A stretch of 64,000 nt of DNA from Blastocatellia bacterium (GTDB lineage: Bacteria > Acidobacteriota > Blastocatellia > UBA7656), in assembly GCA_035275065.1 (NCBI GenBank), contig DATENM010000129.1, forward strand, positions 13,409 to 77,408. Reading direction: 5' to 3'. How positions within the stretch are numbered: the first letter of the stretch is position 1; each line of letters opens with the position of its first letter. A model generated the notes under the pieces. It saw only the letters and a list, made by a program, of their open reading frames with translations, was not told the DNA's origin and ran no database searches. The position numbers were made by a program, and so were the translations under genes. This document shows, one piece after another, positions 1-31,336 of the stretch.

Positions 1-3000
1 GTCTCGTCGGTATCGAGCAGCAGGACCTGTTCTTCCCTGCGCTTGCCTTGCTGTGCGGGCCGGCCCGCATCACAGGCCAGGTGAGTGGGCGTGGTGAAGC
101 CTTTCAGCTCCTCTTTCCAGAATGACTGTGCGGGCTGGTGGTCTTGCCGCTTCAACCATGCGACATAATCTCTGTAGGGCCGCGCGCGCCGCGGTTGCGG
201 CTCTCGTTGCAGGGCTTCGCCGTCATAGCAGGCGAATACTTCCTTGATAATCAGCTCGCGGCACCAGGCGTCGTAGAGCAAGTGATGACTGCTCCAGACG
301 AAGAAGTAACTGTCTTCGCCCGTGCGTAGCAGGGCCAGGCGCAACAGCGGCGCGCGGGAAAGATCGAATCCCGCTTCGGCGTCGCTTACGAGGAACTGCC
401 GCAGACGCGCGCACTGCTCGTCGGGGCAAAGGGGCCGCCAATCCTCTTCATGCCAGGGGACCTCGACTTTTTCGTGGACAAGCTGCAAAGGCTCTTGTAG
501 CCCTTTCCACAAGAAGGAGGTCCGCAAGGCCGAATGCCGACCGACGACGGTCTGCCATGCGCGCCTGAAGGCTTGCGGGTCCAGCCGCCCGCCAATGCGA
601 CAGCTCGTTTGCACGAAGTAGAGGGCCGGGCCGGGCGCGTAGAGCGAATGAAACAACACGCCCTGTTGCATGGGCGAGAGCGTGTACAGGTCCTCAACCG
701 ATGCCCTGCGACCGAGCGCTCGGTCGAGCGTCTCCTGATCGAGGTTGGCGAGCGGGAAATCCGACGGCGTATAGCCGCCGACGCCCGGTGATTGGCAGTG
801 AACGATGAGGGCGCGCAAGCAAGCGGCAAACAAGTCAGCCAGATTCGCTACCGTCTGGCGGCGGTGAATGTTCTCGCTATACGTCCAGTCGATGCGCAGT
901 CGCCCATTGACGATCAACCCATTGAGGTCGAGCAGATGGCCGCGTGGATTATCGCCGTCCTGCACGGGGCCGGGGTTTTCTTGTGCCGGCGCAAACGGCG
1001 AAGCCTCCGAGAAGAGCTGGTCGAACTGCCCCAGGTAGTTGAAGCTGATCTGCGGGCGCGGCAGCTCGTCGAGTCGCCGCAGGCTGTCCGGGTCGCCGCT
1101 CAGGTAACGCAAAGCGCCGTAGGCGAAGCCGCGTCGCGGGAGCGCACGGAGCTGTTCTTTGATCTCCTTCAACACGTCGCCCACATGCCGCTTTCGCAAT
1201 TGCAGGCGGACGGGAAAGATCGTCGTAAACCATCCGACCGTGCGCGACAGGTCAATGTCTTCGGCCAGCGCCTCGCGTCCATGCCCTTCGAGATCGATCA
1301 GCACGTCGTCCTGACCGGTCCACAGGGTGCAAGCGTGGGCCAGGGCGCTCAAGAGCGCGTCATTGATCTGCGTATGGTAAGCCGCAGGCACGTCTCTGAG
1401 CAGCGCGCGGGTTTCTTCGGCGCTCAGCCAGACCGACACGGTGCGCGCCGAAGCCACCGTGTTGCAGCCCGCCGGCTCATCGACCGGCAGCGCACTCGCG
1501 GCGCCCTCCCACGGGGCGGCGAGCCAGTACTGCGCTTCCTGTTTGAGCGCCTCCGTCTGAGCGTAGGATTGCAGCCGCTGCGCCCACTGGCGGAAAGAGG
1601 TCGTTCGGGGCGGCAACTGCACGGTCCCGCCCCGCGCCAGTTGCTCGTAAGCGCTCTGCAAGTCTTCGAGCAGGATTCGCCAGGAAACGCCATCGATGAC
1701 CAGGTGGTGAATAATGATTAAGACCCGGTCAGCCTGCTGCTGGCCGAATTGAAAGAGCGCCACGCGCAGCAGCGGCCCGTCGGATATGTTAAGGCTGCGT
1801 TGCAGGTCGGCGGCAACGCTCTCCAGCGCCGCCAGTTGCTGCGCCTCCGGCACGCCCGATAAATCGACCCGCTGAACCGCCGCGCGGTCGCCGGCTGGCG
1901 AGCTGAACTGTCGCCAGTGCGTGCCCTGCCGGCGGAAGCGAAATCGCAGCGCGTCATGGTGCTGCAAGAGGTGGCCCACGGCTTCTTCCAACAGCTCCGC
2001 CTTCAGGGCCGCCCTCGCGGTCAGCAGAACGGCCTGGTTCCAGTGGTGCGGATTGGCGTAGCCCTGGTCAAAGAAGCGCCGCTGGATGGGCGTCAGTTCG
2101 ACATCGCCCTCTGCCGCTTCGGGCTCCGCCACATTCGCCGGCGCTGTATGGACGGACGCGGCCAGCGCGGCGACCGTCTGGTGCTCGAAGAGGTCCACGG
2201 GGGCCAGGTTATAGCCGGCCTGTCTGGCCCTGGAGACAATCTGTATGCAGAGGATGGAGTCGCCGCCCAGCTCGAAGAAGTTGTCCTCAATGCCGACTCG
2301 CTCGACCCCCAAGACCTGCGCCCAGATGCCGCACAGCGTTTCTTCGACGGTGTTGGTCGGCGCGTCATAGCCCCGCCGCCTGGGCTGTATCTCCGGCCTG
2401 GGCAGCGCGCGCCTGTCAATCTTGCCATTAGGGGTCAGCGGCATGGCCTCTAACACCACACAGGCGGCAGGGTACATATACTCTGGAAGCCGCCCCCGCA
2501 AATAATCCATCAACTCGGCGGCGGGCGGCGCTTGTCCTGTACCCACGACATAGGCCACCAGCCGCTGCACGCCGGGATCATCTTCGCGCACCAGCGCCAC
2601 GGCCTGCCCGACTGCCGGATGCTGCGCCAGCACCTCTTCGATTTCGCCGAGCTCGATACGGAAGCCACGGATTTTCAACTGGTAGTCCGTGCGTCCAATG
2701 TAGTTTACGTTCCCATCATCTAGATGCCGGGCCAGGTCGCCCGTGCGGTACATACGGGTTCCGGAGCCGGTAAAGGGGTCGGGGATGAACCGCTCGGCGG
2801 TCAAATCCGGCCTTCCCCAGTAGCCGCGCCCGAGGGCGGGGCCGCCGATGTAGAGGTGTGCGGCTGCCCCTGGGGCAGCCGGAGCGAGCTCGTCATCGAG
2901 GAGATAGGCCCGCGTGTTCGCTATCGGACGACCGATAGGGGCGCTCGGCCCCTCAAAGGGCTCGCAATGCCAGAAGAGCGTCTGGATAGTGGCTTCCGTC

Positions 3001-5285
3001 GGGCCGTACAGGTTGCACAACCCGCATGCCAGTTGCCGTAAGGCTTTCTCCTGCAACTCGCTGCTCAACGCTTCGCCGCCGCAGAAGGCTTGCCTGAGGC
3101 TAGTGCAGGTGTCGAGGCCGCCGGCCTCAAGCATCAGCCGCAGTTGTGCAGGGACCAGTTGCAGAACGGTCACCTGGTTTTCCCTCACGGCCTGCACCAT
3201 GTATTCGCCGTCGGCATGTCCTGAGGGGCGAGCCATAACCAGCTCGGCGCCGCTCAACAACGGGGCCCAAAATTCCCACACCGAGGCGTCGAAGCTGAAG
3301 GGCGTCTTCTGTAGCACGCGGTCCGTTTCGCGCACCGAAAACTCCCGGTCGAACCACGCCATGTGGTGCGCCAGCGAGCCGTTGCTTATGGCGACGCCTT
3401 TGGGCTTGCCCGTCGAGCCGGAGGTATAAAGGACGTATGCAAGTTGTTCGGGAAAGACTCGCGGCTGCGGGGCGAGGCCGCTTTCCTGCGCGATGATCTC
3501 CCAATCGGCGTCTACACAGACCTCGATGGCGAAGCCCTGCGGCAGCCGCGCCCGCAGCCGCGCTTGCGTCAGCACGATTGCCGCCCCGGAATCTTCCATC
3601 ATGTAGGCCAGGCGCTCAGCCGGGTAGCCGGGGTCAAGGGGCACGTAAGCGCCGCCGGCTTTCAGGATGGCCAGTAGCCCGAGCACCAGGTCAATCGACC
3701 GCTCCATGCAGATGGCGACTCGCACGTCCGGCCCGACGCCAAGCTGTCGCAGGTAATGGGCTAGCTGGTTGGCCCGCAGGTTCAACTCGCGGTAGCTCAC
3801 CTGTGCGTCTTCATGGCGCACGGCCACGGCGTCGGGCCGCCGTGCCCCCTGCGCCGAAACTTGCTCGGCGATGCTGCCCTCACCTGGAAGCGGCGACCGC
3901 GTATCGTTCCATTCAACCAACACCTGATGCGTTTCGGCCTCGCTCAGAAAGGCGATTTCGCAGATGCGCTTGTCGGCCCCGCAAGCGATCTCGTCCAGCA
4001 TGCGTTGCAAGTGTCTGAGGATGCGCGCAGCGGTTGCCTCATCAAAGCGGCGGCTGTTGTAGAGCAAGCGCAGTTGCAACTGCCGGCCAGGAATGGCGAC
4101 GACCAGCAGCGGATAATTAGGCTGCTCGTTGATCTGCACCTCGCCGATTTCGATGGCGCCGCTGTCACCGGCAGGGCTGCTCGACGTGCCGCGTGTCGGG
4201 TAGTTCTCGAATACCAGGTAGGTGCTGAACAGCGGCACGCCGCGCGGCACGTCGCTCCAACCCTGTACGTCGACCAGCGGGCTGTATTCGTACTGGCGCG
4301 CTTCGGCCTGCTGCGATTGCAGGGCTTGCAGCCACGACAGCAAAGGCGTCTGCGGCGACACCTGCACGCGCACGGGCAGCGTGTTGATGAACAACCCCAC
4401 CATAGATGCGACGCCGGGCAGGTCTGCCGGGCGTCCGGAAAGGGTCGCCCCGACGACCACGTCTGGATCACCGCTATAACGGCTCAGCAGGAGTGTCCAC
4501 GCGCCGAGGATGAGCGTATTCAAGGTGACGCCATGGCGGCGGGCCAGCGCCTGCAAGGCTTCCGTCATGGCCGCCGGTAAATCGGCGCGCACCTCGCGGT
4601 CGCTCGCCTCCTGTGTCGATGCCGCCGCGCTAGAGGCTTGCATCGGCAGCGGCGTTGGGGAGCGAAAGCCGCCCAGGAGCCGCCGCCAGAACCGCTCAGC
4701 GCCCGCCATGTCCTGTTGCTTCAGCCAGGCGATGTAATCTCTGTATGGGCGAGGGCGGTCCAACGCCAGGTCACGCCCCCGCCTGAAGGCTTCGTAGTAA
4801 GCCAGGGTCTCTTCCATGACGATCATAGAAGACCACCCGTCGAGCAAGAGGTGATGCTTGGTCCAGACGAACTGGTGCGCGTTCGAGCTCAGGCGGATCA
4901 ACGCCATCCGCATCAACGGCGGCACGCTCAGGTCAAAGCTACGCTCCCGGTCAATCCGCAAATACTCTTCCAACCGCTCCTGATGTCGGTCTTCGGGCAG
5001 GTGCCGCCAGTCGGCAGTTTCCCAAGGCAACTCGACCTGCGAGCGGACAATTTGCAGTGGCTCGTCGCGCTCCTGCCAGGTGAAGAGGGTGCGCAGGATG
5101 GGGTGTCTATCAACGACCCTCTGCCAGGCCCTTTTAAACGCCACGACGTCGAGATTGCCGTAGAGAGGGCAGCTTAACTGCACCACGTAGGCGGCTCGCG
5201 AGTCGGGGGCATAGATGCTGTGAAACAGTATGCCCCGCTGCAATGGCGACAGGGGATAGATCGCTTCGATGTTCCGCTTAGTCAT
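1..5285 (-). CDS. NRPS, 3'-truncated by window edge; domains C-A-T-E-C(partial)
   Basis: Absent from the ORF track because the minus-strand frame beginning ATG 5285 (MTKRNIEAIYPLSPLQRGILFHS...) has no stop down to position 1. None of the listed minus ORFs in 1-5285 share this frame. In-frame motifs I read: HHLLLDGWS (C3, ~4850), YRTGDLARHLDDGNV (A8, ~2700), LTPNGKIDRRALP (A10, ~2410), FFELGGDSI (T domain of the type that precedes E, ~2280), IIIHHLVIDGVSW (E domain, ~1715), SSHHLLYDAW (next C domain, ~280). The start codon is 23 nt downstream of the upstream NRPS stop. Confidence 0.8.
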   Translation of the reverse strand, partial: MTKRNIEAIYPLSPLQRGILFHSIYAPDSRAAYVVQLSCPLYGNLDVVAFKRAWQRVVDRHPILRTLFTWQERDEPLQIVRSQVELPWETADWRHLPEDRHQERLEEYLRIDRERSFDLSVPPLMRMALIRLSSNAHQFVWTKHHLLLDGWSSMIVMEETLAYYEAFRRGRDLALDRPRPYRDYIAWLKQQDMAGAERFWRRLLGGFRSPTPLPMQASSAAASTQEASDREVRADLPAAMTEALQALARRHGVTLNTLILGAWTLLLSRYSGDPDVVVGATLSGRPADLPGVASMVGLFINTLPVRVQVSPQTPLLSWLQALQSQQAEARQYEYSPLVDVQGWSDVPRGVPLFSTYLVFENYPTRGTSSSPAGDSGAIEIGEVQINEQPNYPLLVVAIPGRQLQLRLLYNSRRFDEATAARILRHLQRMLDEIACGADKRICEIAFLSEAETHQVLVEWNDTRSPLPGEGSIAEQVSAQGARRPDAVAVRHEDAQVSYRELNLRANQLAHYLRQLGVGPDVRVAICMERSIDLVLGLLAILKAGGAYVPLDPGYPAERLAYMMEDSGAAIVLTQARLRARLPQGFAIEVCVDADWEIIAQESGLAPQPRVFPEQLAYVLYTSGSTGKPKGVAISNGSLAHHMAWFDREFSVRETDRVLQKTPFSFDASVWEFWAPLLSGAELVMARPSGHADGEYMVQAVRENQVTVLQLVPAQLRLMLEAGGLDTCTSLRQAFCGGEALSSELQEKALRQLACGLCNLYGPTEATIQTLFWHCEPFEGPSAPIGRPIANTRAYLLDDELAPAAPGAAAHLYIGGPALGRGYWGRPDLTAERFIPDPFTGSGTRMYRTGDLARHLDDGNVNYIGRTDYQLKIRGFRIELGEIEEVLAQHPAVGQAVALVREDDPGVQRLVAYVVGTGQAPPAAELMDYLRGRLPEYMYPAACVVLEAMPLTPNGKIDRRALPRPEIQPRRRGYDAPTNTVEETLCGIWAQVLGVERVGIEDNFFELGGDSILCIQIVSRARQAGYNLAPVDLFEHQTVAALAASVHTAPANVAEPEAAEGDVELTPIQRRFFDQGYANPHHWNQAVLLTARAALKAELLEEAVGHLLQHHDALRFRFRRQGTHWRQFSSPAGDRAAVQRVDLSGVPEAQQLAALESVAADLQRSLNISDGPLLRVALFQFGQQQADRVLIIIHHLVIDGVSWRILLEDLQSAYEQLARGGTVQLPPRTTSFRQWAQRLQSYAQTEALKQEAQYWLAAPWEGAASALPVDEPAGCNTVASARTVSVWLSAEETRALLRDVPAAYHTQINDALLSALAHACTLWTGQDDVLIDLEGHGREALAEDIDLSRTVGWFTTIFPVRLQLRKRHVGDVLKEIKEQLRALPRRGFAYGALRYLSGDPDSLRRLDELPRPQISFNYLGQFDQLFSEASPFAPAQENPGPVQDGDNPRGHLLDLNGLIVNGRLRIDWTYSENIHRRQTVANLADLFAACLRALIVHCQSPGVGGYTPSDFPLANLDQETLDRALGRRASVEDLYTLSPMQQGVLFHSLYAPGPALYFVQTSCRIGGRLDPQAFRRAWQTVVGRHSALRTSFLWKGLQEPLQLVHEKVEVPWHEEDWRPLCPDEQCARLRQFLVSDAEAGFDLSRAPLLRLALLRTGEDSYFFVWSSHHLLYDAWCRELIIKEVFACYDGEALQREPQPRRARPYRDYVAWLKRQDHQPAQSFWKEELKGFTTPTHLACDAGRPAQQGKRREEQVLLLDTDE

Positions 5286-5308
5286 AAGCTGTCCGGTCAG
5301 GCAGTGGG

Positions 5309-8300
5309 TTAGCCGAATTTCGCCATCAGGGAATCTAACTCGTTCTGGCTCAGGGCCACGTCGGGAAAATCCGAAGGGGTCAGGCCGCCGCTCGCGTCGG
5401 TCAGGCAGTGGTTGATGATCGCTCGCAAAGCCGCCAGGAAGTCCTCGCCGAGTCGCTCCATCGTCACGCGCCGGTGGACATTTTGACTATAGCGGAAAGA
5501 GAATTGCAGCCGCCCCTCGGCGACATGCCCGATCACCTCCAGCAGGTGCGGGCGGGCGGCTCGCGGGCTATTGTTGGGAGCGCGCAACTCCCGCATGCCC
5601 GCAAACAGCGGGCTGTTAGAAAAGACCTGGTCGAACTGTCCGACGTAGTTGAAGCTGATCTGGGCTTGCTGGCAGGCTCGCAACCGCGCGGCGACCGCGG
5701 CGTCGCCGCTCAGATAGCGCAGCAGGCCGTACCCTGTTCCGTGCTGCGGCAGCCGCCGCAGTTGTTCCTTGATCGATCTTAGGGCGGCCCCCGGTGCCGG
5801 CGAGTCTCCGGCATCCAACAGCACGGGGAAGCGCGTCGTGAACCAGCCGACCGTGCGCGATATATCGACGCCGGGCAACAGGTCGTGTCGCCCGTGGCTT
5901 TCCAGGTCGACCAGCAGTCTTGAGGAGCCGGTCCAGCAGGCAACCGCCTGTACCAGGGCGGTCAGTAGGATGTCTTCAACTTGGACCCGGTAGACGCCGG
6001 GGACCTCGCGCAGCAGTGCCTCGGTCGCTTGCGCGTCGAGTAACACCGTCACCGCACACGTCGAGCCTTCAGAGTTGACCCCGCCGTTCAGCTCGGCTGG
6101 GAGCATGGCCACAGGTTCGTCGGCGCCACTCAGCCAGTAATCGCCCTGCCGCCGCACCTCAGGCGATTGGGCGTACTCGGTCAATTGCTCCGCCCATTGC
6201 CGGTAAGAGGCCGTCTTGACGGGCAGAGTCACGGGCTGCCCGCCTGCAAGCTGCCCGTAGCCGGTTTGCAGGTCGTCGAGCAGCACATGCCAGGAGACCA
6301 CATCGACGGCCAGGTGGTGAATGATAATCAACAGCCAGTCGGGTCGGCTGCCGCCGCGTTGAAAGTGGAGCACCCGCAGCAGCGGCCCTTCGGCAAGGTT
6401 GAGACTGGCCTGCGCTTCGGCGGCCAGGCGTTCGACGGCCAGCCTTTGGTGCAATTCGGGCAGGGCCGCAATATCGACCTCGGCAAAAGGCAGCCCCGCA
6501 TCGGGTCTTGAATAAACCTGGCGCACCGCCTCGCCGTGGCGAGTGAACCGCAGCCTGAGCGAATCGTGATGCTCTAACAAGCGCCTGAGCGTCTCAGCCA
6601 GCAGGCTCGCGCTCAAGGGCTGCCGCGTTTCGAGCAGTAGAGACTGGTTCCAGTGGTGCGGGTCGGCGAAGTCCTGCTCGAAGAAACGGCGCTGAATCGG
6701 TGTGAGCGAAACCTCGCCGCTTACCGGCCCCTGTTCGGCCACAGGCCGACTGTGCTTACGCACGACCTCGGCCAGTTCGGCAATCGTCTGGCGCTCGAAG
6801 ATGTCCCGTTCCGTCAGTTGATAGCCGGCCTCTCTCGCCCGCGAGACAATCTGAATGCTGAGAATGGAATCTCCCCCGAGCCGGAAGAAATTCGCGCCGG
6901 TGCTGACCCGGTCGAGGCCGAGTACGTCAGCCCAAATTCGTGCCAGGTGCGCTTCAACCTCAGTCTGCGGGGCCGTGAAATCGGCCTCAGAGCCCTGCTC
7001 GCGCGTCTCCGGTGCGGGAAGTGCCCGCCGGTCAACCTTGCCATTGGCGGTCAGCGGCAACGACGGCAGCAGAACATAATCGGAGGGCACCATGTAGTCG
7101 GGCAGCCGGTCCCTGAGATAGCCCCAGATCGCCTCGGGTTCGAGGGCGGTCCCGCCGTTGGTATCGATGTAGGCGACCATCCTCTTGTTTCCGGGGCGGT
7201 CTTCGCGCGCCAGCACAACCGCCGTGCGCACGAGCGGGTGCTCGGCCAGCACGGCTTCTATCTCGCCTAACTCGATGCGGAAGCCGCGAATCTTTACCTG
7301 ATGATCGAGGCGGCCCAGGAAATCGATAGCCCCATCGGCCCGCCGCCGTGCCCTGTCCCCCGTACGGTAGAGTCGCCCCCCGGCCTGCCGCGCGAATGGG
7401 TTTGGCAGAAATCTCGACGCCGTCAGGTCGGGGCGGTTGAGATAGCCGCGGCTCACCCCCGCGCCGCCCAGGTAGATTTCCCCGCTCGCGCCGCCGGGCA
7501 GGGCATTCAAGCCGTCGTCCAGAATGTAAACCAGCGCGTTGGCGAGCGGCGGGCCGAGCGGCAGACTGGCTGACGGCTCGCCGCCGCTCTCGCCGGCCTT
7601 CACCTCGTAGGCCAGAGCGCCCACCGTCGTTTCCGTCGGGCCATAATGATTGATGACTTTGCAGTCCGGCTGCGCCTCTTGCAACTGTCGCACCCATGCG
7701 GCGGACGCGGCCTCGCCTCCGAGTATCAAGGTACGGCGCGGGCGTATACGTTGCCCGCCGCGCGTCGCGTGCAGGGCCGCCAGGTGCGAAGGCGTTATCT
7801 TGAGGTAATCGATGAAATGATTCTCGAAGTAATCGCCGAGCGCCGCCGCATCCTGCATGGCCTCGGCGGAGATGACATGCAGGCAGCCGCCCGTGAGCAG
7901 TGCCGGGAATATGGCCGTGTTTCCGAGGTCGGCAGCGAGCGTTGACAGCGTCGCGTGCCCTTCGCCTTCCCTGATCCTAAGCAGGCCAGCGATGGCGCGG
8001 CTGTAATTGACCAACTGGCGATGTTCAACCGCCACGCCCTTGGGCTTGCCCGTCGAGCCCGACGTGTAGATGACGTAGACGAGATTCTGCGGGCTTACCG
8101 CCGAGGCCGCGACGGCGGCGCTGACCGAGCCGGGCGATTCCCATTCCGCGTCGAGGGCGATCATCTCCACCTTGAGATGAGACATCTCCTTCGCCATCCG
8201 GCGCTGCGTCAGCATGAGAGTCGCCTGACTGTCTTCCAGCATGTAGGCCAACCGGTCCTTCGGGTACGCCGCATCAAGCGGCACGTAAGCACCGCCGGCT

Positions 8301-9931
8301 TTGAGCACGGCCAACAGGCCGACCACCATATCGATGCCGCGCTCCGCGCACAAGGCAACCGGCACGTCCGCCCTTACCCCTCTTCGCCGAAGCTCGTGGG
8401 CCAGGCATTCGGCCCGCCGCCCCAAGGCGGCGTATGTGACTTGTTGGTCCTCGCACACGACCGCTATCGAGTCTGGCGTCCGCTTCGCCTGCTTCTCAAA
8501 CAGCTCGTGAACGACCTCTTCAGCGGCGTCGCCGGCCCCTGTATCATTTAGCTCAACCAACTGGTGCTGCCGCTCTAACTCTCCGAGCAGCGGCAACTCA
8601 CCGACGTGCGCGCTGGGGTTGGCAATGGCCGACTCAAGCAGGACTTTCAGCGCGTCACCTAGCCGCCGCACCCCTTCCACGTCAAAACGTCCGGCGTCAT
8701 AGTGCAACTCCAGGTCCGGCCCTTCTTCTTTTTCGAAGCAGGCCAGCTTCACCTCATAGGGCTCGATACATTCAAAGCGGCCGGCGCTGGAGAAGTCGCC
8801 GTCGCCGCGGTATGAACGGGCGGGCTGAGCGACAAACTCGAAGAGGGCCGAGCAGAATGGTGGCCGCTCCGGCTCAGGCCCCGACGGCGCGAGCCGTTCC
8901 CAGGTGAAACAGTCCTGCCAGGTGTAGCTCTCCTCGACCGACTGGCGGACGCAGCCTAAGACCTCCGCGAAGCGCGAATGACTCTCCATGCCGCACTCGA
9001 CCGGCAGGTATCTCGCAAACAGCCCGAGTGCCTTGTCCAGTTCGGCATATTTACGCCCATCAGAGCGAACGCCTACATTGAAAGCGCGCCCGCCGGTCAG
9101 GCGAAATAGCAGAGCCATCCAGGCGCTCAACAGAAAGACGGACGGCGGCACATCAAGCCCGCGGCTGACGCCGGCGAGCTGCGCCGCCCTCGCCGCGTCG
9201 AGCGGGCAAGCGATCATGGCCGGCGTAAAGGTGGTCACGCGGCGGCTCGCCAGGAAAGGCAGATCGAGCGCGAGATCAGACGAAAGGACTTTCCGACGCC
9301 AGTACCGTCTGCCCGCCTCTGCTTCCTCCGAGTCAATCGCTTCGCGCTGCCACTGGGCGAAGTCCGCATACTGCAAAGGGTCGAGGCGGTCGCCGTCATA
9401 CGCGGAACCCTCAAGGCCAACGCCGGCAAGCTCGGTGAGCAATTGAGCCAGCGTCGCCGAGTCGCCGCAAAGCGCCGCGATGGACGCCAGCAGGACGTGC
9501 TTGTCGTCCGACAGCTCGATGGCCTGCACCCGCCAGAGCGGGCCATTCTCAAAATCGAAAGGCTTGCGCTTCATCTCGTCGAACCGCCGTCCGACTTCAT
9601 CCTGTTGATCCCGCAGAGTGCGCCCGATCAGCGAAACCCGCTCAAAGGCCGGCCAGAGTTCCGGCCTGACGACCTGTGCCAGCCTGGACTCCGACGGCAG
9701 GTAGTCGAATGTCGTGCGCAGGATTTCATGGCGATTCATGGCGGTGACCATTGCGCGTTGCAACCTCTCCGCGTCAAGGCGCTGCCGGATCAGTATGGCC
9801 TGCTGTGAGCGGTAGGCCAGCCCTCCGCCGTCCCGCAACAAGGACCACAAACGCTCCTGTTGGGGCGAGGCGTAGTAGCGGTGCGCTTCTTCACTCTGCC
9901 CGCCATTTTTGAGCGCCGCTTGACCTTCCAT
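5309..9931 (-). CDS. NRPS module C0-A-T-E (inactive-looking C domain, adenylation, thiolation, epimerization)
   Basis: 1540 aa. The N-terminal C-domain fold carries C1/C2/C4 motifs (QQERLWSL, NRHEILRTTF, LQYADFAQW), but the HHxxxDG position reads AALCGDS (aa 152-158). A domain: YTSGSTGKPKGV, YRTGDRARRRADGAIDFLGRLDHQVKIRGFRIELGEIE, LPDYMVPSDYVLLPSLPLTANGKVDR. T domain FFRLGGDSILS (GGDSI type). E domain IIHHLAVDVVSW. RBS AGGAGA 5 nt upstream of ATG. Confidence 0.9.
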   Translation of the reverse strand: MEGQAALKNGGQSEEAHRYYASPQQERLWSLLRDGGGLAYRSQQAILIRQRLDAERLQRAMVTAMNRHEILRTTFDYLPSESRLAQVVRPELWPAFERVSLIGRTLRDQQDEVGRRFDEMKRKPFDFENGPLWRVQAIELSDDKHVLLASIAALCGDSATLAQLLTELAGVGLEGSAYDGDRLDPLQYADFAQWQREAIDSEEAEAGRRYWRRKVLSSDLALDLPFLASRRVTTFTPAMIACPLDAARAAQLAGVSRGLDVPPSVFLLSAWMALLFRLTGGRAFNVGVRSDGRKYAELDKALGLFARYLPVECGMESHSRFAEVLGCVRQSVEESYTWQDCFTWERLAPSGPEPERPPFCSALFEFVAQPARSYRGDGDFSSAGRFECIEPYEVKLACFEKEEGPDLELHYDAGRFDVEGVRRLGDALKVLLESAIANPSAHVGELPLLGELERQHQLVELNDTGAGDAAEEVVHELFEKQAKRTPDSIAVVCEDQQVTYAALGRRAECLAHELRRRGVRADVPVALCAERGIDMVVGLLAVLKAGGAYVPLDAAYPKDRLAYMLEDSQATLMLTQRRMAKEMSHLKVEMIALDAEWESPGSVSAAVAASAVSPQNLVYVIYTSGSTGKPKGVAVEHRQLVNYSRAIAGLLRIREGEGHATLSTLAADLGNTAIFPALLTGGCLHVISAEAMQDAAALGDYFENHFIDYLKITPSHLAALHATRGGQRIRPRRTLILGGEAASAAWVRQLQEAQPDCKVINHYGPTETTVGALAYEVKAGESGGEPSASLPLGPPLANALVYILDDGLNALPGGASGEIYLGGAGVSRGYLNRPDLTASRFLPNPFARQAGGRLYRTGDRARRRADGAIDFLGRLDHQVKIRGFRIELGEIEAVLAEHPLVRTAVVLAREDRPGNKRMVAYIDTNGGTALEPEAIWGYLRDRLPDYMVPSDYVLLPSLPLTANGKVDRRALPAPETREQGSEADFTAPQTEVEAHLARIWADVLGLDRVSTGANFFRLGGDSILSIQIVSRAREAGYQLTERDIFERQTIAELAEVVRKHSRPVAEQGPVSGEVSLTPIQRRFFEQDFADPHHWNQSLLLETRQPLSASLLAETLRRLLEHHDSLRLRFTRHGEAVRQVYSRPDAGLPFAEVDIAALPELHQRLAVERLAAEAQASLNLAEGPLLRVLHFQRGGSRPDWLLIIIHHLAVDVVSWHVLLDDLQTGYGQLAGGQPVTLPVKTASYRQWAEQLTEYAQSPEVRRQGDYWLSGADEPVAMLPAELNGGVNSEGSTCAVTVLLDAQATEALLREVPGVYRVQVEDILLTALVQAVACWTGSSRLLVDLESHGRHDLLPGVDISRTVGWFTTRFPVLLDAGDSPAPGAALRSIKEQLRRLPQHGTGYGLLRYLSGDAAVAARLRACQQAQISFNYVGQFDQVFSNSPLFAGMRELRAPNNSPRAARPHLLEVIGHVAEGRLQFSFRYSQNVHRRVTMERLGEDFLAALRAIINHCLTDASGGLTPSDFPDVALSQNELDSLMAKFG

Positions 9932-10009
9932 GAAATCTCCTGTCGATGAGTTAGGGCTCTTGACCCGACTGCCCGCCGGTGGGGCGGCAGGGGTCTGTGG
10001 CCTCGCCCA

Positions 10010-11131
10010 TCAGTCGGCGACGTGAACCTTGACCCATTCGGGATGGCGTTGAACTCTGAGCCAGTCCGAGGTCGTGTATTTCACCCAGTCCGCGCCGACC
10101 GGCTGGCTCAGGTCGTGTTTGAAGATGATGAAATCGCCGGAGCGTTTGACTTGCCGGAAGCCGGCGAGCTTGAAGGTCAACAGCATCATGCGGTTCCTCT
10201 GGTTGGCGAGAAATTCGGCCTGTAAGCGGACGCCCGCCGCACGGGCGAGCTGAAGCAAGTGGTTCATCATGATGGTTCCGACGCCAAACGACATCACGCG
10301 GCAGGACATCAGGAAGAGCTTGATCGTCCAGAGGTCGTGCCCCTTCTCGACCAGCGTCAGGCCGATCTTCCCATAGTCTCCGAAGTGATCTTTGAGGCTC
10401 GCGACCAGGAAGAGGTGGTCGGCGGATTGGCGCAGGGCGTTCAACTCATCGGGCGAGTAAACATAGCCGGTGGTGTTGAGCTGGTGCGTCCGCAGGGTCA
10501 ATTCTTCGGCGCGCTGCAAATCCTCCGCCTGGAGGGTGCCGATAGTGAACTCCAGGCCGAGGGTAGCGAGAAACTCTTCGCTCGGCCCGACGAACTGTTC
10601 CTCGGCCAGCTTGCGCCGCGCCGCGGCGCGGTACATCTCGCGGCGGCGGGCGGCGTCTTCGGTGACCAGGCGCGGCGAGAACTCCGGCCTCTGCGTCAGG
10701 GTCGCCAACTCGCTGGCCGCCAGCGTCATCACTTCGGGGAGGGCGTGTTTCACCTCTTCGCGCTCGTAGGCTTCGTCGTCAATGAAAGCCACCGCATCGA
10801 GACCGATGTTAATGGAGCCGGCGATTGAGCGGATGCTGGACGACTTCGCGTTCCAGTTCACCTGGGGGTAGAGGAAGTACTCATCCAGCCCCGCCTCTTT
10901 CAGCTTTGCCATGGCCTGCTCATGGTCGTTCTTGCTGGCAATTGAGTGCAGAATGCCGCGCTGGTCCAGGGCCTTGAGCGTCTGGTGTACGCCGTCCCGC
11001 ACCTGCACGCCGTCGCCCTCAAGCAGGGTGCCCTGCCAGATCGTATTATCAAGATCCCAGACCAGAAGCTTGATCAGCCGTGCGGTTGTTTCCTGTCCGT
11101 CTTTCGAGGTGGAAGGCAGAGCTATTGACAC
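10010..11131 (-). CDS. FkbH-like HAD-IIIC phosphatase / glyceryl-loading family protein (stand-alone)
   Basis: LIKLLVWDLDNTIWQG is the HAD motif I (DxDNT) typical of FkbH-like domains. The C-terminal GNAT-like half is as in FkbH. The track ORF begins at GTG 11233. An internal GTG at 11131 preceded by GAAGGAG (spacing 5) gives a typical ~19 aa lead before the DLDNT motif, so the start is uncertain (11131 vs 11233). Confidence 0.7.
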   Translation of the reverse strand: MSIALPSTSKDGQETTARLIKLLVWDLDNTIWQGTLLEGDGVQVRDGVHQTLKALDQRGILHSIASKNDHEQAMAKLKEAGLDEYFLYPQVNWNAKSSSIRSIAGSINIGLDAVAFIDDEAYEREEVKHALPEVMTLAASELATLTQRPEFSPRLVTEDAARRREMYRAAARRKLAEEQFVGPSEEFLATLGLEFTIGTLQAEDLQRAEELTLRTHQLNTTGYVYSPDELNALRQSADHLFLVASLKDHFGDYGKIGLTLVEKGHDLWTIKLFLMSCRVMSFGVGTIMMNHLLQLARAAGVRLQAEFLANQRNRMMLLTFKLAGFRQVKRSGDFIIFKHDLSQPVGADWVKYTTSDWLRVQRHPEWVKVHVAD

Positions 11132-11316
11132 AGGAACTCCTTCGGATGGGTGTAGTGCTCGCGGGAGGGTTGAGCGCCCGTCTTGCCCGGCGGCTCTTCG
11201 GTCCTGGGCTAACAAGATTGGGCGAAGTGGCACAGGCTACAAAGGCATTTCTGCGCTGACGCCGATGGTTCTCCATGCCACTCCGGTCTTTTATCCCAAT
11301 CTTGCGTCCTCTCAAT

Positions 11317-14300
11317 TTAACTTGAGACGACACGACGCCGGACTTGCTTCAACTGCTGATGAAGCGCGCTTTCGTATTTCGCCGCCACGCGGCTCTGGTA
11401 ATGCCTGCCGGCCATTCGCAGGTGCTCATCGAGCGCCCGCAAGCTGAGGCCCGGCTGCCTCGTCGCCCTTTCAAGGACCGCTCGAAAGGACTCGCATAGA
11501 TCGGCTATAGTGCCGGCTTCAAACAGGTCGCCGTTATACTCGAAGTTGCCGCTGATGCCCGCCGCGCCATCTACGAAGTGGACGGCCAGATCGACTTTGG
11601 CGGCCTGCGAAACCGTCTCGAGCGGAGTCAGCGTGGCGGCGGGCAGTTTCACGGTCGGCAAAGCGCCGGCGTGCAGACCGAACCAGACGCGGTACAAGGG
11701 AGAATGGTTGACCGTGCGTTCCGGCGCAATGGCCGCCACCAGCCGCTCGAATGGCAGGTCCTGGTGAGCGTATGCCTGTAGGGCCACGTCGCGGACGCGC
11801 CCGAGGAGTTGGCGGAAGGTCGGGTTGCCGGACAGATCGACCCGCAAGACCAACGTGTTGACGAAGAAACCGATGAGCCGCTCGAACTCGGCGCGGTTGC
11901 GCCCTGCGATGGGCGACCCGACCGTGATGTCGCTCTGCGCCGTGTAGTGGTGGAGCACCACAGAGAACCCCGCCAGCAGGGCCATAAACAGTGTGCTTCC
12001 CTCTTTCCGGGCGAGCCTTCTGATTTCGTCTGAGAGTTCTTTCGTGAGAGTCAGTTTTTCAAACGCCGCGGGGCTTACACTCCGCCGCGGGCGCGGCCTG
12101 TCGGCGGGCAGTTCAAGCTCGGCAGCCGGCCTGGCAAACTGCTGCTGCCAGTACGCAAGCTGGCTTCGCAGAAGGTCGCCTCGCAATTGCCGGCGCTGCC
12201 ACAGGGCGAAATCCGCGTACTGAACCGGCAGCGGCGCTAGCGGCGAGGCGTTGCCCGCCAGATAGGCCCGGTAAAGGGCAGCCAACTCGTCCAGCAAAAC
12301 TCCGAGCGACCACGCATCACTGATAATGTGGTGCAGCGTCAGCAGCAACAGGCTCTCGTCGGCTGACGAGCGCAGCAGGCGCACGCGTAGCAGTGGCCCC
12401 TGCTTGAGGTCGAAAGGGCGTCGAGCTTCTGCCGCCGCCAGCTCGTCAGCCTTGCCGGCTGCCACGCTTCCCATATCAACCAGCGGCAGCCCGATTTGCG
12501 CCGCCGGCTGTATGACCTGCGCGAGCTGGCCCTGGCGTTCTCTAAAAACGGTTCGCAAGGCGCTGTGGCGGAAGGCAATCTCTCTGACCGCCTGCTCCAG
12601 CGCAAAGCGATTCAGAGAGCCGACCAGGCGAAACGCAACCGCGATATTGTAGGCCGGATTGCCCGGCGTCAACTGGTCCAGGAACCACAACCGCTGCTGA
12701 CCGAACGAGGGCGGAAAGTCCGCCTCCTCGTTGGCCGGAGCGGCCGGCTCTGAAGGCGGCTCATCAACCGGCCTCGTCAGCTCGGCGGCTGCCAGCAGGG
12801 CGAGCCTGGAGATACTTTCCTCCTGCAAAAAGGCCGACATGGGCAAGAAAATCTTCAACCCCGTCTCGATCTCATTTTGCAGTTCCATCGCCTTCAGCGA
12901 ATCCACTCCGAGCCGCATCAGCGGTTGCTGCAAAGGCAACTGGCCGGGCGCCAGTCCCAGCAGCCGTGCCACTACACTTTGCAGGTGGCGCTCCAGCCGC
13001 AGCCGCCGTTGAGGTTCCGAATCAAGGGCCAGCAACTCTTCACGGGAGACCGTCGGCTGATCTGATTCGACAGGCAGGTCGCCCGGCTCTGTGACCAGGC
13101 TCGATTCAATCGCGTTTAGTGCGCCGGCCAAGAACGCTTCGCGGCAGGCCGAGCGCTGCACTTTGCCGCTCGAAGTCTTGGGCACGCTGCCCGGTTTGCT
13201 TAAAACGACCGCGTGCGCCTGGACCTCATGCGCTTCGGTCACTGCCCCGCGGATGGCCTCGGCGACCTCGTGCAAGTCCGCTTCCTGATACTGCCGCTCG
13301 ATCTCTTGAACGATGACCAGTCGCTCTTCGCCGCCGACCTCCACGGAGAAAGCGGCGCCGCCGCCGGGCCGCGCCGCCGGATGACAACGCTCGACGGTGA
13401 ATTCAATGTCCTGCGGATAATGATTGCGACCGCGAATGATGATCAGGTCTTTCGAGCGCCCGGTCACGTACAACTCGCCATCCTCGATGACGCCCAGATC
13501 GCCGGTGCGCAGGAAAGGGCCTGCGCCGCTGTCGGCCAGATAAGCCTTGAAGGTGCGACGCGATTCGTCAGGCAGGTTCCAGTAGCCGGCGGCGACGCTC
13601 GCCCCCGCGACCCAGACCTCGCCGACGTGGCCGGTCGGACATTCCGTCAGAGACAGTGGATCGACGATCCTGATTCGCCCGCCCGCGCCGCTCTCCCCGC
13701 AACTCACCAGATGGCGCGCGTCGGCGTCTTCAGCCGCCGCCGGCTCCAGGCGGTTTCGTTTGAGGGCTTCGCCACGGACCGATTTAATCGTCGGCCCGCC
13801 CCCGCTCTGACTGCCTGAAACGAACAGGGTGGCCTCGGCCAACCCGTAGCAGGGGTGAAAGGCCGTGGGGCGGAATCCGCAGGGCGAAAAGGCGGCGGCG
13901 AACTGGTCGAGCGTCTGTTTGCGTATCGGCTCGGCCCCGCAGTAGGCCGTCTCCCAGGTGCTCAAGTCAATGGCTTCGCGTTGCTCGGCGCTGACCTTAC
14001 GCGAGCACAGGGCGTAGGCGAAATCCGGCCCGCCGCTGGTCGTCGCCCGGTAGCGCGATATGGTTTCGAGCCACGCCGAGGGGTTTTGCAGAAAGGTCGT
14101 CGGCGACAACAGGATGCAGCGCGCGCCGGCGTATAGCGTTTGCAGCACGCTGCCGATCAGTCCCATGTCATGGAATAGCGGCAGCCAGCAGACGATGATT
14201 GACGCTTCAGTCTGTCGAAAGGCGTGCTTAATCAGGCGCTCGTTGTCGAGCAGGTTCTCATGCGTCACCATCACGCCTTTCGGCGTTGCCGTCGAGCCTG

Positions 14301-14847
14301 ACGTATACTGGAGGAAGGCCAGTGTATGTCCGGCCACAGAAGGCCGCCGCCAGGTGTCCGCCCATTCGTCTTCAATGGCATCGACGGCGCAGATCGCCGC
14401 CTTCCGTCCTGCCCCCGCCTCGCGCAGCCACTGTATCTGCGGCAGCAGGCGGCTGGCGGTGAGAATGATCGCCGGCGACGCGTTTTCGATGATGGCTTCG
14501 ATGCGGCCAAGGCGCCGGTTGGAGCGCGGCGGGTAGGCGGGAACGGCCACCGCCCTGGCATAGAGGCAGCCGAAGAAGGCCGCGATGTAATCAATGCCGG
14601 ACGGAAAGAGCAGTAAGACGCGCTCATCGGCGGCCCTGCGGGATTGCAGCCATGCGCCGATGGCCCGCGCCCGCCGGTCCAGCTCGCTGTAGGTCATGCA
14701 GGCTGCCGGCGTCCTCGCATCGGCGAGGAAGGTGTAGCCCGCTCGCTCGGCCTGCGCCGCGGCCCTGTGGCGTAGCAGCTCGACGAGGTTGAGCGGCTCA
14801 AGGTCCGGCACCAACCGGCGGTCTGACGTGGACACCGTGTTCTTCAT
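11317..14847 (-). CDS. Lipoinitiation protein: fatty acyl-AMP ligase (FAAL) - ACP - condensation domain
   Basis: 1176 aa. FAAL N-terminus (TYSELDRRARAIGAWL, FLQYTSGSTATPKGVMVTHENLL, insertion-containing FadD32-like pattern). Carrier domain LMRLGVDSLKAMEL. C domain with HHIISDAWS plus C1/C4 motifs (QQRLWFLDQL, YADFALWQ). Confidence 0.85.
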   Translation of the reverse strand: MKNTVSTSDRRLVPDLEPLNLVELLRHRAAAQAERAGYTFLADARTPAACMTYSELDRRARAIGAWLQSRRAADERVLLLFPSGIDYIAAFFGCLYARAVAVPAYPPRSNRRLGRIEAIIENASPAIILTASRLLPQIQWLREAGAGRKAAICAVDAIEDEWADTWRRPSVAGHTLAFLQYTSGSTATPKGVMVTHENLLDNERLIKHAFRQTEASIIVCWLPLFHDMGLIGSVLQTLYAGARCILLSPTTFLQNPSAWLETISRYRATTSGGPDFAYALCSRKVSAEQREAIDLSTWETAYCGAEPIRKQTLDQFAAAFSPCGFRPTAFHPCYGLAEATLFVSGSQSGGGPTIKSVRGEALKRNRLEPAAAEDADARHLVSCGESGAGGRIRIVDPLSLTECPTGHVGEVWVAGASVAAGYWNLPDESRRTFKAYLADSGAGPFLRTGDLGVIEDGELYVTGRSKDLIIIRGRNHYPQDIEFTVERCHPAARPGGGAAFSVEVGGEERLVIVQEIERQYQEADLHEVAEAIRGAVTEAHEVQAHAVVLSKPGSVPKTSSGKVQRSACREAFLAGALNAIESSLVTEPGDLPVESDQPTVSREELLALDSEPQRRLRLERHLQSVVARLLGLAPGQLPLQQPLMRLGVDSLKAMELQNEIETGLKIFLPMSAFLQEESISRLALLAAAELTRPVDEPPSEPAAPANEEADFPPSFGQQRLWFLDQLTPGNPAYNIAVAFRLVGSLNRFALEQAVREIAFRHSALRTVFRERQGQLAQVIQPAAQIGLPLVDMGSVAAGKADELAAAEARRPFDLKQGPLLRVRLLRSSADESLLLLTLHHIISDAWSLGVLLDELAALYRAYLAGNASPLAPLPVQYADFALWQRRQLRGDLLRSQLAYWQQQFARPAAELELPADRPRPRRSVSPAAFEKLTLTKELSDEIRRLARKEGSTLFMALLAGFSVVLHHYTAQSDITVGSPIAGRNRAEFERLIGFFVNTLVLRVDLSGNPTFRQLLGRVRDVALQAYAHQDLPFERLVAAIAPERTVNHSPLYRVWFGLHAGALPTVKLPAATLTPLETVSQAAKVDLAVHFVDGAAGISGNFEYNGDLFEAGTIADLCESFRAVLERATRQPGLSLRALDEHLRMAGRHYQSRVAAKYESALHQQLKQVRRRVVSS

Positions 14848-22595: not shown

Positions 22596-22697
22596 GGGGT
22601 TCTCCGCTGAAACTGGAATTGAAGATTCGAGCGACCTCGGCCCGCCGTGCGCCGCCACGGCCAGAACAACCGGGCTTTGCGAGCCGGCGCGGTCAGC

Positions 22698-23436: not shown

Positions 23437-24039
23437 TCAATCTCCGGCACCGGCCTCCACCCTTGCGAGGTGTCCGGTGCCTGCCAGGGTGCTCAAGTCG
23501 ATGTCGGCAATGCACCTGACCTTAACGTAATCGAGCGAAAGACCACCTTCGAGGTGGACGGGGCCGCTGCCTTGGTCGAAATCGGCCCGGCTGAAATCGC
23601 AAGCCTCACGGTCCAACCTGACGCCGAGTTCCGTGCCCCCCCTCGTGTCGGTGAACTTGATGTGAACGTAATTTCGGTCAATGGCCTCCTTAAACAGCTT
23701 CACCGTCCTTTCGGGGCGCAGGCCGGCTTCGACCGGGTGGTCGGCTTCGCAAAGGCGCTCGACCAGGCTCTTCTCCTCAGGCGCGGCGGGCGCGGGCGCG
23801 GCGGGCGGCGGCGGATTCTTAGCCATCTCCTCCATCTTTTTGCGCAGGCTGAGCGGCCTCATGTCGGTCCACACTTCTTTGATATAGGCCAGGCAGTCGG
23901 CTTTCGGCCCGACCTTTCCGGCGTCGCGCCACCCGAGGGGGTTCTCTTTGTACTCCGGCCATATCGAGTATTGTTCTTCATGATTCACGACGACCTTGTA
24001 GATGGTCGTGTCTTCTCTGTCGGCATCGTTCCAGCTCAT
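23437..24039 (-). CDS. MbtH-like protein fused to a C-terminal ~115 aa domain of unknown function
   Basis: [64 protein letters not shown] matches the MbtH signature (YxVVxNxExQYSxWP, GW, WTDxRP). A Pro/Ala-rich linker ([12 protein letters not shown]) precedes the unassigned C-terminal domain. Start at the second ATG (RBS GGAGGT, 7 nt). Confidence 0.75.
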
Positions 24040-24144
24040 CTTTTCAACCTCCGTAATTGAGATGTTCATCTGGTGGCTCCAGGCGATGGAGCCGTGATCA
24101 GTCGTTTGCGCGCCGTGCGGCTCGGCGCGCGGCGCGGCGGGCGG

Positions 24145-30000: not shown

Positions 30001-31284
30001 GAGGCCGCTGAAGCGCAATTCCGCAAAGGGCGAGGACTTCTTCTGGTCGGCGGCGGGCGGGGCGCTCGACATCGAGAACATGACCTGGAACAGCGGCGCG
30101 TAGCTCAGGCTACGCTCAGGCTTCAACTCCTCAATCAGTCGCTCGAAAGGCAAATCCTGATGCGCCTGCGCTCCCAGAAAGACCTCGCGCACATGGCCTA
30201 TGGCCTCGCGGATCGTCATGTCGCTGGGAAGCTTCGACCGCATCACCACCGTGTTCAGGAAGAAGCCGATCAGCGGCTCCGTCTCGATGCGGCTGCGGCC
30301 CGCTAACACCGTGCCGACGGCGATATCTTGCTGCCCACTGTGGCGGCAGAGCAGGACCTTGAGCGCCGCCAGAAGGACGACGAACAGCGTCACCCCCTCG
30401 CGCTGGCTCAGGGCGCGGAGCCCTTCGGTCAGTTCCGCCGACAGCGTCAGCCCTTCAGTAGCCGCCCGGTAGGTGCGCCTGTCTGAGCGCCGCCGGTCGG
30501 TCGGCAAATCCAGGGCTTGGATGCCCTCCAGTTGTTGTTTCCAGTAGGCGAGCTCGCCGGCCAGCACGTCGCCCTGTAACCACTGCCGCTGCCAATGACT
30601 GTAGTCGGCAAACTGTATTGGCAAGTCGGCCATCGGCGACGGCATGCCCGTGCCATAGGTCTGGTAGAGCATTCCCAGTTCCCGCATAAATATCTCGCCC
30701 GACCACAGGTCAGAGACGATGTGGTGCATCGTCCGCAACACCGCATAGCATCGCTTATTCTTAATCAAGCTGACCCGCAAGAGCGAATCTTCGGCCAAAT
30801 CGTAGGGCCGACGGGCCTCTTCTGCGGCCAGCCGGCGAGTGACGGCCTCCTGCTCAGGCTCGCTCAATCCTTCGAGATCAACGGTCGGCAGCGGCTGCTG
30901 TCGTGCGGCGGCAATCACCTGGACGGCTTGACCATCCTCGCTTACAAAGTTGGTGCGCAGGGATTCGTGCCGCCTGATAACCTCGTTAAGCGCCTGGCTC
31001 ATCGCCGACACGTTGAGCCGCCCGCTGATCTGCCCGGCCAGCGATATGTTGTAAGTCACGCTGCCGGGATTTAACTGATCCCATATCCACAGCCGCTCCT
31101 GCGCAAACGAGAGCGGTATCGGCTGATCGGGCGGGCGCGGGGGGATACTGCCGGGGCGGGAATCCTCCGGCGCGGCGACTTGCAACCGGCCCAATAGCGC
31201 CGCCTGTTTTTCCGATGGCAGGCTGGCCCGCCGCATGGCGAGGCGGCCGCGGCGGCGCTCGATCTCCTCTCTTGCTGTCGTCAT
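27097..31284 (-). CDS. NRPS termination module C-A-T-TE
   Basis: C domain: [24 protein letters not shown]. A domain: [91 protein letters not shown]. T domain [12 protein letters not shown]. TE domain [21 protein letters not shown] (GxSxG). The track ORF starts at 31452 and overlaps the upstream GT gene, so I chose ATG 31284 ([13 protein letters not shown]). Confidence 0.85.
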   Translation of the reverse strand: [1395 protein letters not shown]

Positions 31285-31336
31285 AAAGGTTCTCTGAATG
31301 GGCAGACGATGGGCGGCCTTCGTTTCTGCATCACCG

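Follow-up and report, generated by a model that had tools for sequence, protein, structure and literature searches.

How does an assembly line begin when the first module of its peptide synthetase opens with a condensation domain that has lost both catalytic histidines? The question is raised by three consecutive genes in a 64,000-nt stretch of contig DATENM010000129.1 from a Blastocatellia bacterium (hereafter, the window). The first gene encodes a protein in which fatty-acid-AMP ligase (FAAL), acyl carrier protein (ACP) and condensation (C) domains follow one another, the second a stand-alone FkbH-like enzyme, and the third a 1540-aa nonribosomal peptide synthetase (NRPS). An initial annotation, made from the sequence alone, had described this order, and we confirmed it: all three genes lie co-directionally on the minus strand, with 185 nt separating FkbH from the preceding gene and 78 nt from the next one. 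The analysis described below points to a split initiation system, in which the C domain of the first protein most likely acts in trans on the third and FkbH stands where related systems have a hydroxylase.

The condensation-fold domain without histidines

The 1540-aa protein initially appeared to be C-A-T-C-like (A, adenylation; T, thiolation), but its last domain is an epimerisation (E) domain (Table 1), in keeping with the DCL-type start of the next gene. Its N-terminal domain is a complete C fold. A profile comparison matched it to solved C domains over positions 21–468, and its AlphaFold2 (AF2) model had a predicted local distance difference test (pLDDT) score of 86.4 and a predicted template-modelling (pTM) score of 0.88. 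The model superposes on the C domains of Txo1, Txo2 and TycC with template-modelling (TM) scores of ~0.8 and on the X domain (4tx2/4tx3) with a score of ~0.78. The motif AALCGDS aligns by column with HHxxxDG of the other six C-type domains in the window and of 26 database homologues, so that its homology to the C3 motif stands. Since both histidines are replaced with alanine, the domain is very probably non-catalytic, as the initial annotation had presumed.

The AAxxxDS segment had also been regarded as an oddity of one protein, and this view had to be abandoned. The closest database homologues, 31–37% identical, belong to Nostoc and other Cyanobacteria and to Blastocatellia, Pyrinomonadaceae and Chloroflexia. 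Every one of them carries (P/A/S)-A-x-x-x-D at C3, with C1, C2 and C4 still recognisable, and the segment therefore represents the family state of a clade. Ala153 is invariant in seven aligned clade members, and 14 positions are invariant across 27 sequences of the clade from Cyanobacteria, Acidobacteriota and Chloroflexota. The His-less domain, FkbH and TauD were then used as queries against all 100 loci collected for this study (numbered L below), the first of them by tblastn, which yielded 274 matches. Every match above 185 bits was without the HH pair, while the listed matches below ~160 bits carry it; the single exception is a TauD-adjacent HALHAD domain in L033 (143 bits). A genome-contig scan queried with the E-C junction of the NRPS encoded downstream returned generic NRPS loci only and no orthologues; these loci served as a background set of ~250 ordinary C domains. 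In a neighbour-joining tree the window domain grouped with TauD-partnered His-less domains; the His-less group was recovered on a long branch with 100% bootstrap support, and the FkbH-linked subclade with 88%.

The genomic surroundings of the clade are equally uniform. Nine of its ten non-orthologous members lie 40–250 bp downstream of a TauD-family gene, which is itself located behind a complete His-bearing C domain. The recurrent unit can be written as “...T-C | TauD | I-A-T-(E/C/TE)”, where I is an interface domain and TE a thioesterase. A His-less domain that opens a protein before A-T, with a complete His-bearing C domain closing the upstream protein, is found in the window, in L012, L015, L033 and L092, and twice in L021. 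The A-domain codes of the TauD-partnered members are Asp/Asn-like, and one Nostoc module has DLTKIGHVGK, a code identical to that of the 1540-aa protein. Just upstream of one TauD | I-A-T unit of L021 (Nostoc), an NRPS has the stretch C-T-C (10826–13876), with no A domain detected there.

Interface domains were reportedly described by Reitz et al. in 2019 in β-hydroxy-Asp/Asn modules of siderophore-type NRPSs, a group to which the cyanochelins belong. The architecture is known from the literature for β-hydroxy-amino-acid modules, and the family definition used here rests on secondary citations. The closest homologues of the window domain occur in precisely such “...T-C | TauD | I-A(Asp/Asn)-T” arrangements. 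Unlike in those modules, the TauD slot is filled by FkbH here. No TauD homologue was found in the window (chance matches only, E ≥ 3.8) or in the orthologous loci L004, L009, L011 and L090. No TonB-type receptor was seen in the window. Another C fold that serves trans enzymes without condensation chemistry is the glycopeptide X domain, which recruits the P450 Oxy enzymes. In contrast to the domain studied here, it resides in the last module before the TE, falls into another clade and works with other partners.

Because it is a member of a distinct and conserved His-less clade, the domain is most likely not a decayed C domain of the first module but an interface (I)-type domain, a known class of non-catalytic adaptors. 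The alternative that it, or FkbH, or both are functionless remnants in decay is the one to which we give the least credence. The loss of both histidines would fit such decay, and so would the finding that the I domain can be omitted in vitro in myxoglucamide (Mxg) biosynthesis (PMC13638107). Yet remnants would hardly keep 14 invariant positions across three phyla or give a confident full-length C-fold model, and FkbH retains all its catalytic residues at 66–100% identity in six lineages.

Loading and acylation of the first amino acid

The A domain of the 1540-aa protein has intact core motifs. Its specificity code was read by a hand-anchored alignment, and its assignment to Asp follows the published Stachelhaus code DLTKVGHIGK. 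All four orthologues compared have an intact A domain with the code DLTK(I/V/L)GHVGK. Because the intact Asp-type A domain is followed by an E domain and then by a DCL-type C domain in the next protein, the first amino acid would be Asp, presumably ending as D-Asp.

In the upstream protein, the FAAL core motifs are intact on reading of the translation, and NCBIfam fatty-acid-AMP ligase models match. The protein also matches positions 8–1137 of PRK05691, a general NRPS/PKS (polyketide synthase) subfamily model that we take to be PvdL-like. Its terminal C domain retains the histidines at C3 and is 45–52% identical to many ordinary C domains, which makes it an ordinary LCL-like domain. The best 120 homologues of this domain include one C-TauD fusion and no C-FkbH fusion.

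The closest precedent for this arrangement is the biosynthesis of myxoglucamide, where MxgA (FAAL-ACP-C-Ox) precedes MxgB (I-A(Glu)-T) and the C domain of MxgA acylates the amino acid bound to MxgB (PMC13638107, sections 2.7–2.9). Both systems have FAAL-ACP followed by a His-bearing C domain that closes the first protein, a tailoring enzyme, and a His-less I domain in front of A-T; both clusters also contain a glycosyltransferase, an NRPS/PKS hybrid and a flavin-type monooxygenase. They differ in the slot enzyme, which is a stand-alone FkbH here and a fused iron/2-oxoglutarate (Fe/2OG) dioxygenase in Mxg, and in the amino acid, Asp here and Glu in Mxg. The hosts are an acidobacterium and a myxobacterium, respectively, and the likeness described here is one of architecture.

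Given the I-domain architecture and the MxgA/MxgB precedent, the upstream C domain most likely N-acylates T-bound Asp in trans. To judge from the sequences, it is the only candidate catalyst of the first condensation. The initial annotation had offered, as an alternative, that the dead C domain is a docking scaffold for a C domain acting in trans. This idea came close to the evidence, since the domain falls into a TauD-partnered interface-type clade and MxgA/MxgB are split in the same way (PMC13638107).

FkbH in the hydroxylase slot

The enzyme encoded between the two synthetases is a genuine member of its family and, by its conserved residues, catalytically intact. Its sequence is identical to that of database protein P0104, annotated from a Blastocatellia metagenome-assembled genome on a 94.7-kb contig; an exact look-up of the 1540-aa protein gave no match. 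FkbH matches TIGR01686 (“FkbH domain”) with 263.7 bits at a cut-off of 146.65 and consists of an N-terminal HAD phosphatase and a Cys-bearing C-terminal domain that is GNAT-like in the model. Foldseek searches with the AF2 model (pLDDT 83.8) related the N-terminal half to MDP-1-type HAD phosphatases and the Cys-bearing half to GNAT acetyltransferases. Among 46 homologues, residues D26, L27, D28, T30 and C277 do not vary, and conservation of N29 reaches at least 90%. The catalytic role of Cys277 we take from what is known of OzmB and FkbH. An assignment to the non-glyceryl HAD phosphatases, which the initial annotation had named as a refuting outcome, fails: the protein is 66% identical to an FkbH from Blastocatellia AA13 that is part of a canonical 3HCDH-ACP-ACAD-FkbH cassette located beside an NRPS.

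The enzyme thus has the same DxDxT motif and Cys as those of the FkbH-FkbJ(ACP)-FkbI-FkbK cassettes for hydroxymalonyl- and methoxymalonyl-ACP (also OzmB and ZmaN). It is set apart from them by several features. No FkbI, FkbJ or FkbK partner genes were seen near FkbH in the window or in the orthologous loci searched. Near the C-terminus there is a 16-residue insertion, W(L/V)(K/E)YTTSxWL, present in all eight representatives of the NRPS-embedded FkbH clade and in none of the 38 canonical enzymes; in the model it forms a low-confidence flexible segment with a short helix. R282, five residues past the Cys, is invariant in the canonical set and is replaced with L or F in six of the eight clade members, while T224, also invariant there, is V, L or I in all eight. 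The canonical invariants D170, S160, L241 and Y320 differ in most or all of the eight.

The cassette of Blastocatellia AA13 and of two metagenome contigs (L006–L008, 7436–11074) is complete, and no O-methyltransferase was present among the adjacent called genes. Its content suggests hydroxymalonyl-ACP over methoxymalonyl-ACP as the product. The cassette adjoins an NRPS and MacB-type exporters. Genes for an ankyrin (Ank) protein and a 155-aa helix-turn-helix (HTH) protein are common to it and the window; because of these two genes, the AA13-type and window clusters share accessory genes.

The order FAAL-ACP-C, FkbH, large NRPS gene was found in six independent Blastocatellia-type lineages, with FkbH identities of 66–100%. 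In the five lineages for which the start of the NRPS gene was read, it opens with a His-less domain whose C3 motif is IAALCGD, VSALCAD, ISALCGD or ISALCSD. FkbH and the I-A-T-E gene share 4 nt in L011, the stop codon of the former overlapping the start of the latter. What appears to be new here is that FkbH holds the hydroxylase slot beside an interface-type domain in six lineages; we found no description of such a replacement in the literature consulted. The NRPS-linked FkbH enzymes in those papers are fused to a T domain of their own (PMC8949500, PMC10099666, PMC8609519).

Two further observations concern the slot. In L098, a frameshifted sulfotransferase-like open reading frame (ORF; 6995–7946) lies where TauD would be expected, with a C domain on one side and a His-less C*-A gene on the other. 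This single error-prone long-read contig hints that the slot may accept other enzyme classes. The database protein P0093, a sulfotransferase joined to a C domain, was considered as a Rosetta-stone fusion for the interface and ruled out, since its C domain has a normal HHSISDG motif.

A glyceryl unit made by FkbH needs an acceptor, and the identity of this acceptor separates the possible schemes. A carrier-protein hidden Markov model was run on the window and on L004, L090, L009, L011 and L091, all translated in six frames. Only module-integrated carriers were detected, each with its own loader (FAAL, A or acyltransferase, AT); no free carrier, loaderless T domain or FkbJ-type ACP was found in any of the loci scanned.

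This result bears directly on the acyl-glycerate starter proposed in the initial annotation by analogy with vioprolide. The precedent itself is real. Vioprolide and corramycin do use FAAL-ACP-C-FkbH-T for glycerate esterification (PMC8949500, PMC10099666), and the window reproduces the first part of that arrangement, FAAL-ACP-C followed by FkbH. As in vioprolide, corramycin and cystomanamide, FkbH is expected to form a glyceryl thioester and the lipid tail would be removed later. The scheme itself, in which glycerate sits on its own carrier, is esterified by the C domain and is handed on by the next C domain, requires a glycerate-bearing T domain and an active next C domain, both of which are lacking here and in the orthologous loci. 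FkbH, with 373 aa, is a protein in its own right with no T domain after it, the next C-fold domain is His-less and of interface type, and the T domain of that module is served by its own intact Asp-type A domain and by the E domain. Lacking both a carrier for glycerate and a catalytic C domain after it, the locus cannot run the canonical vioprolide scheme, and we consider a starter of this kind very improbable.

A stronger competitor is that FkbH has nothing to do with priming. It would then supply a glycerate-derived unit to some other carrier, located beyond the window or present as a discrete ACP elsewhere in the genome, as a PKS extender or in late tailoring, its position would be an accident of operon history, and the chain would start as plain N-acyl-D-Asp, as with PvdL/PvdQ or cyanochelin C. 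The 66% identity to the FkbH of the AA13 cassette, in a locus with the same Ank and HTH genes, speaks for this, as does the PKS module KS-AT-KR-ACP-C (KS, ketosynthase; KR, ketoreductase) encoded two genes downstream in the orthologues. The ordinary LCL type of the C domain in FAAL-ACP-C fits as well. So does the PvdQ-like Ntn-hydrolase acylase encoded in the cluster, an enzyme that suits an amide-linked lipid. Cyanochelin C likewise pairs FAAL with such an acylase, CcsQ (10.64898/2026.07.24.740629), and the PvdL/PvdQ type combines an Ntn-hydrolase acylase with a starting fatty-acid-activating domain, carrier and C domain. Against it, the AT of the PKS module bears GYSIGE and HAFH, a malonyl signature, and with neither FkbI/J/K nor a free ACP in the loci searched, the specific proposal of a glycerate-derived extender for this PKS was lowered. 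Six lineages retain FkbH in the slot, in one of them coupled translationally to I-A-T-E, and the insertion and the lost canonical invariants argue for a changed partner. Taken together, these points leave an FkbH unconnected with priming somewhat unlikely, though it deserves serious attention.

The reading we prefer, a split initiation of the form “FAAL-ACP-C | trans enzyme | I-A-T-E” with FkbH as the trans partner, can be put forward as a tentative proposal that falls a little short of an even chance when taken as a whole. The part of it that concerns the interface domain and trans-acylation we hold with considerable confidence. In this scheme, FAAL would load a fatty acid onto its own ACP, and that protein's terminal, His-bearing C domain would serve, in trans, the T domain of the following protein, charged with Asp by its A domain. 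FkbH, by now a dedicated trans partner of the module, would make glyceryl-S-Cys from 1,3-bisphosphoglycerate and deliver the glyceryl unit at the Asp-loaded T domain, preferably by transfer from Cys277 to the α-amine of Asp-S-T. The upstream C domain would then esterify the glyceryl hydroxyl, giving an acyl-glyceryl-D-Asp start. The chain would move on through the E domain and the downstream DCL module, and the PvdQ-like acylase would strip the lipid tail late. Direct transfer from Cys277 would explain why an extra T domain and a second active C domain are absent together, and we count the GNAT fold of the modelled Cys-bearing domain, a typical N-acyltransferase fold, in favour of such a transfer.

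Several considerations weigh against this proposal. Contact between FkbH and the I domain and the glyceryl transfer itself are steps that we infer. To our knowledge, FkbH enzymes load phosphopantetheine thiols only, and we know of no precedent for direct aminolysis onto a T-bound amino acid. Being 66% identical to an ACP-dependent FkbH, the enzyme may use an ACP elsewhere in the genome, and ~30 kb of the contig extend beyond the window. The presence of a PvdQ-type acylase suggests that the fatty acid is amide-linked, in better agreement with plain N-acyl-Asp than with an acyl-glycerate ester. The tree described above holds TauD-partnered His-less domains and not the named I domains of CucF/G, MxgB or glidomide. 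The position in the slot could by itself be an accident of cassette insertion. Finally, the I domain was dispensable in vitro in Mxg, which weakens the case for a recruiting role even for hydroxylases; in glidomide biosynthesis, according to the same paper, the I domain is indispensable (PMC13638107).

The difficulty of the acceptor would disappear if one ACP-C pair were used twice. FkbH would load glyceryl onto the ACP of FAAL-ACP-C, the C domain would pass it to the amine of Asp-S-T, FAAL would reload the ACP, and the same C domain would esterify the glyceryl group, in a compressed form of the vioprolide logic. No missing carrier or second active C domain is then needed, the chemistry of FkbH stays canonical with a thiol acceptor, and glycerate-esterifying C domains are documented for vioprolide (PMC8949500). 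Competition of two loaders for one ACP would nevertheless be unprecedented, as would a single C domain that forms an amide first and an ester afterwards. The FkbH clade has moreover lost residues conserved in ACP-dependent enzymes, and the I domain would be left without a role. We therefore regard double use of the ACP as improbable.

The preferred split initiation also suggests a broader and more speculative idea, which we think unlikely but worth stating, namely that interface domains are general plug-in adaptors for trans enzymes. The I domain would here dock a carrier-less FkbH that itself acts as the “carrier” and, through its GNAT-like domain, gives glycerate from its own cysteine to the T-bound Asp amine, after which the upstream C domain esterifies it.

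Neighbouring genes and significance

Coordinates of the features discussed are collected in Table 1.

Table 1. Features of the FkbH locus, in window coordinates (I*, putative interface-type His-less domain)
Feature	Position	Strand	Remarks
NRPS gene cut by the left window edge	3..5285 (ORF 3-5486)	(-)	DCL-type C, A (DAWQFGLIQK, Gln-like), T, E, C...
I*-A(Asp)-T-E protein, 1540 aa	5309..9931	(-)	Pfam and NCBIfam matches; A code DLTKIGHVGK
Epimerisation domain	5369..6721	(-)	HHLAVDVVSW; TIGR01720 match
T domain	6764..6946	(-)	GGDSI type, as before E domains
Adenylation domain	7037..8500	(-)	core motifs intact; code DLTKIGHVGK (Asp)
His-less C-fold domain	8552..9883	(-)	aa 17-460
AALCGDS	9458..9478	(-)	aa 152-158; homologous to HHxxxDG
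Stand-alone FkbH, 373 aa	10010..11131	(-)	ORF 10010-11233; GTG start after GAAGGAG; TIGR01686; identical to database protein P0104
16-residue insertion of FkbH (QPVGADWVKYTTSDWL)	10058..10105	(-)	only in NRPS-embedded FkbH clade
Cys277 of FkbH	10301..10303	(-)	in SCRV; presumed glyceryl-thioester site
HAD motif of FkbH, D26-L-D28-N-T30 (DxDxT)	11042..11056	(-)	
FAAL-ACP-C initiation protein, 1176 aa	11317..14847	(-)	Pfam and NCBIfam matches
Domains of FAAL-ACP-C			FAAL aa 37-581; ACP aa 622-683; His-bearing LCL-like C aa 712-1138; C-terminal tail ~40 aa
Intact C3 motif of FAAL-ACP-C, HHIISDA	12313..12333	(-)	
Carbamoyltransferase, 665 aa	14873..16870	(-)	
Carbamoyltransferase with DUF3471 tail, 827 aa	17615..20098	(-)	
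PvdQ-like Ntn-hydrolase acylase	20169..22658	(-)	Penicil_amidase 692 bits; hydrophobic signal-like N-terminus; kept in orthologous loci
C-A-T-TE module	27097..31452	(-)	A code VDFVVSSADK, without Asp235; A5 motif NSYGASE vs NxYGPTE

The assembly line does not end with the 1540-aa protein, its first amino-acid module: a further NRPS gene, starting at 5285, leaves the window at its left edge. This gene, which opens with the DCL-type sequence YPLSPLQRGILFH, had been missed in the ORF lists, from which truncated ORFs were omitted. In the orthologues, the gene after I-A-T-E encodes a 2610–2625-aa C-A-T-E-C-A-T protein and is followed by KS-AT(HAFH)-KR-ACP-C. On an orthologous contig with 86% identity (Ga0307468_100000034), the next gene has a truncated C domain at its start and then an A domain. 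In L090, the orthologue of the region to the left of the window, this gene (20541–21497) keeps only the C-terminal half of its C domain before the A domain, making it the second case in the cluster of a complete protein-terminal C domain facing a degenerate C-like N-terminus of the next protein.

Upstream, the same operon contains genes for a glycosyltransferase, a C-A-T-TE module, a luciferase-like monooxygenase, an ABC exporter, an MbtH fusion, an ankyrin protein, the PvdQ-like acylase, two carbamoyltransferases and an HTH protein. The acylase probably functions in removal of the lipid tail. The C-A-T-TE module probably terminates this assembly line; its A-domain code, without the α-amino-binding Asp235, resembles what we take to be β-alanine or β-amino-acid codes. 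The MbtH-like domain (23437–24069, minus strand) is fused to a ~110-aa C-terminal region with a weak CBF-beta-like Pfam match, and the fusion is conserved in the orthologous locus L009 (1–21).

The G+C content is 61–65% across most of the window. It drops to 0.585–0.59 at the boundary between the FkbH cluster and an apparently separate second PKS-NRPS hybrid cluster (35730–52430, minus strand). Between the two clusters lie a gene for a TPR/OmpR-type regulator (33934–35721, plus strand) and a transposase-like HTH ORF (33001–33495). The second cluster comprises a NusG-like gene (51780–52430), a KS-AT-DH-ER-KR-ACP protein without a loading module (45040–51561; DH, dehydratase; ER, enoylreductase), and TubC-dock-Cy-A(Cys, DLYNLSLVWK)-T, C-A-T, C and TE proteins (Cy, heterocyclisation). 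Its stand-alone condensation protein of 477 aa (36590–38023, minus strand) has HQIICDD at C3, the second, catalytic His being replaced with Gln, and adjoins a 391-aa thioesterase (35730–36905) with a ~150-aa N-terminal extension. Farther on, a 734-aa ORF (52813–55017) matched no Pfam family above threshold and gave only a faint VWA match. Between 56000 and 62000, the G+C content is 0.50–0.56 and a tricorn-like protease and a class-3 lipase are encoded; this is probably the edge of the biosynthetic region.

The authors of one paper on I domains suggest that these domains may recruit other enzymes. The locus described here offers a natural test case, with a chemically unrelated enzyme in the hydroxylase slot and I-A(Asp)-T nearly unchanged. 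If the proposed scheme is true, assembly of an acyl-glyceryl-peptide would require one fewer T domain and one fewer active C domain than vioprolide biosynthesis does. If the slot is a general docking site, on-line tailoring enzymes could be added to engineered NRPSs. We know of few characterised natural products from Acidobacteriota, and this cluster family comes from uncultured Blastocatellia of that phylum.

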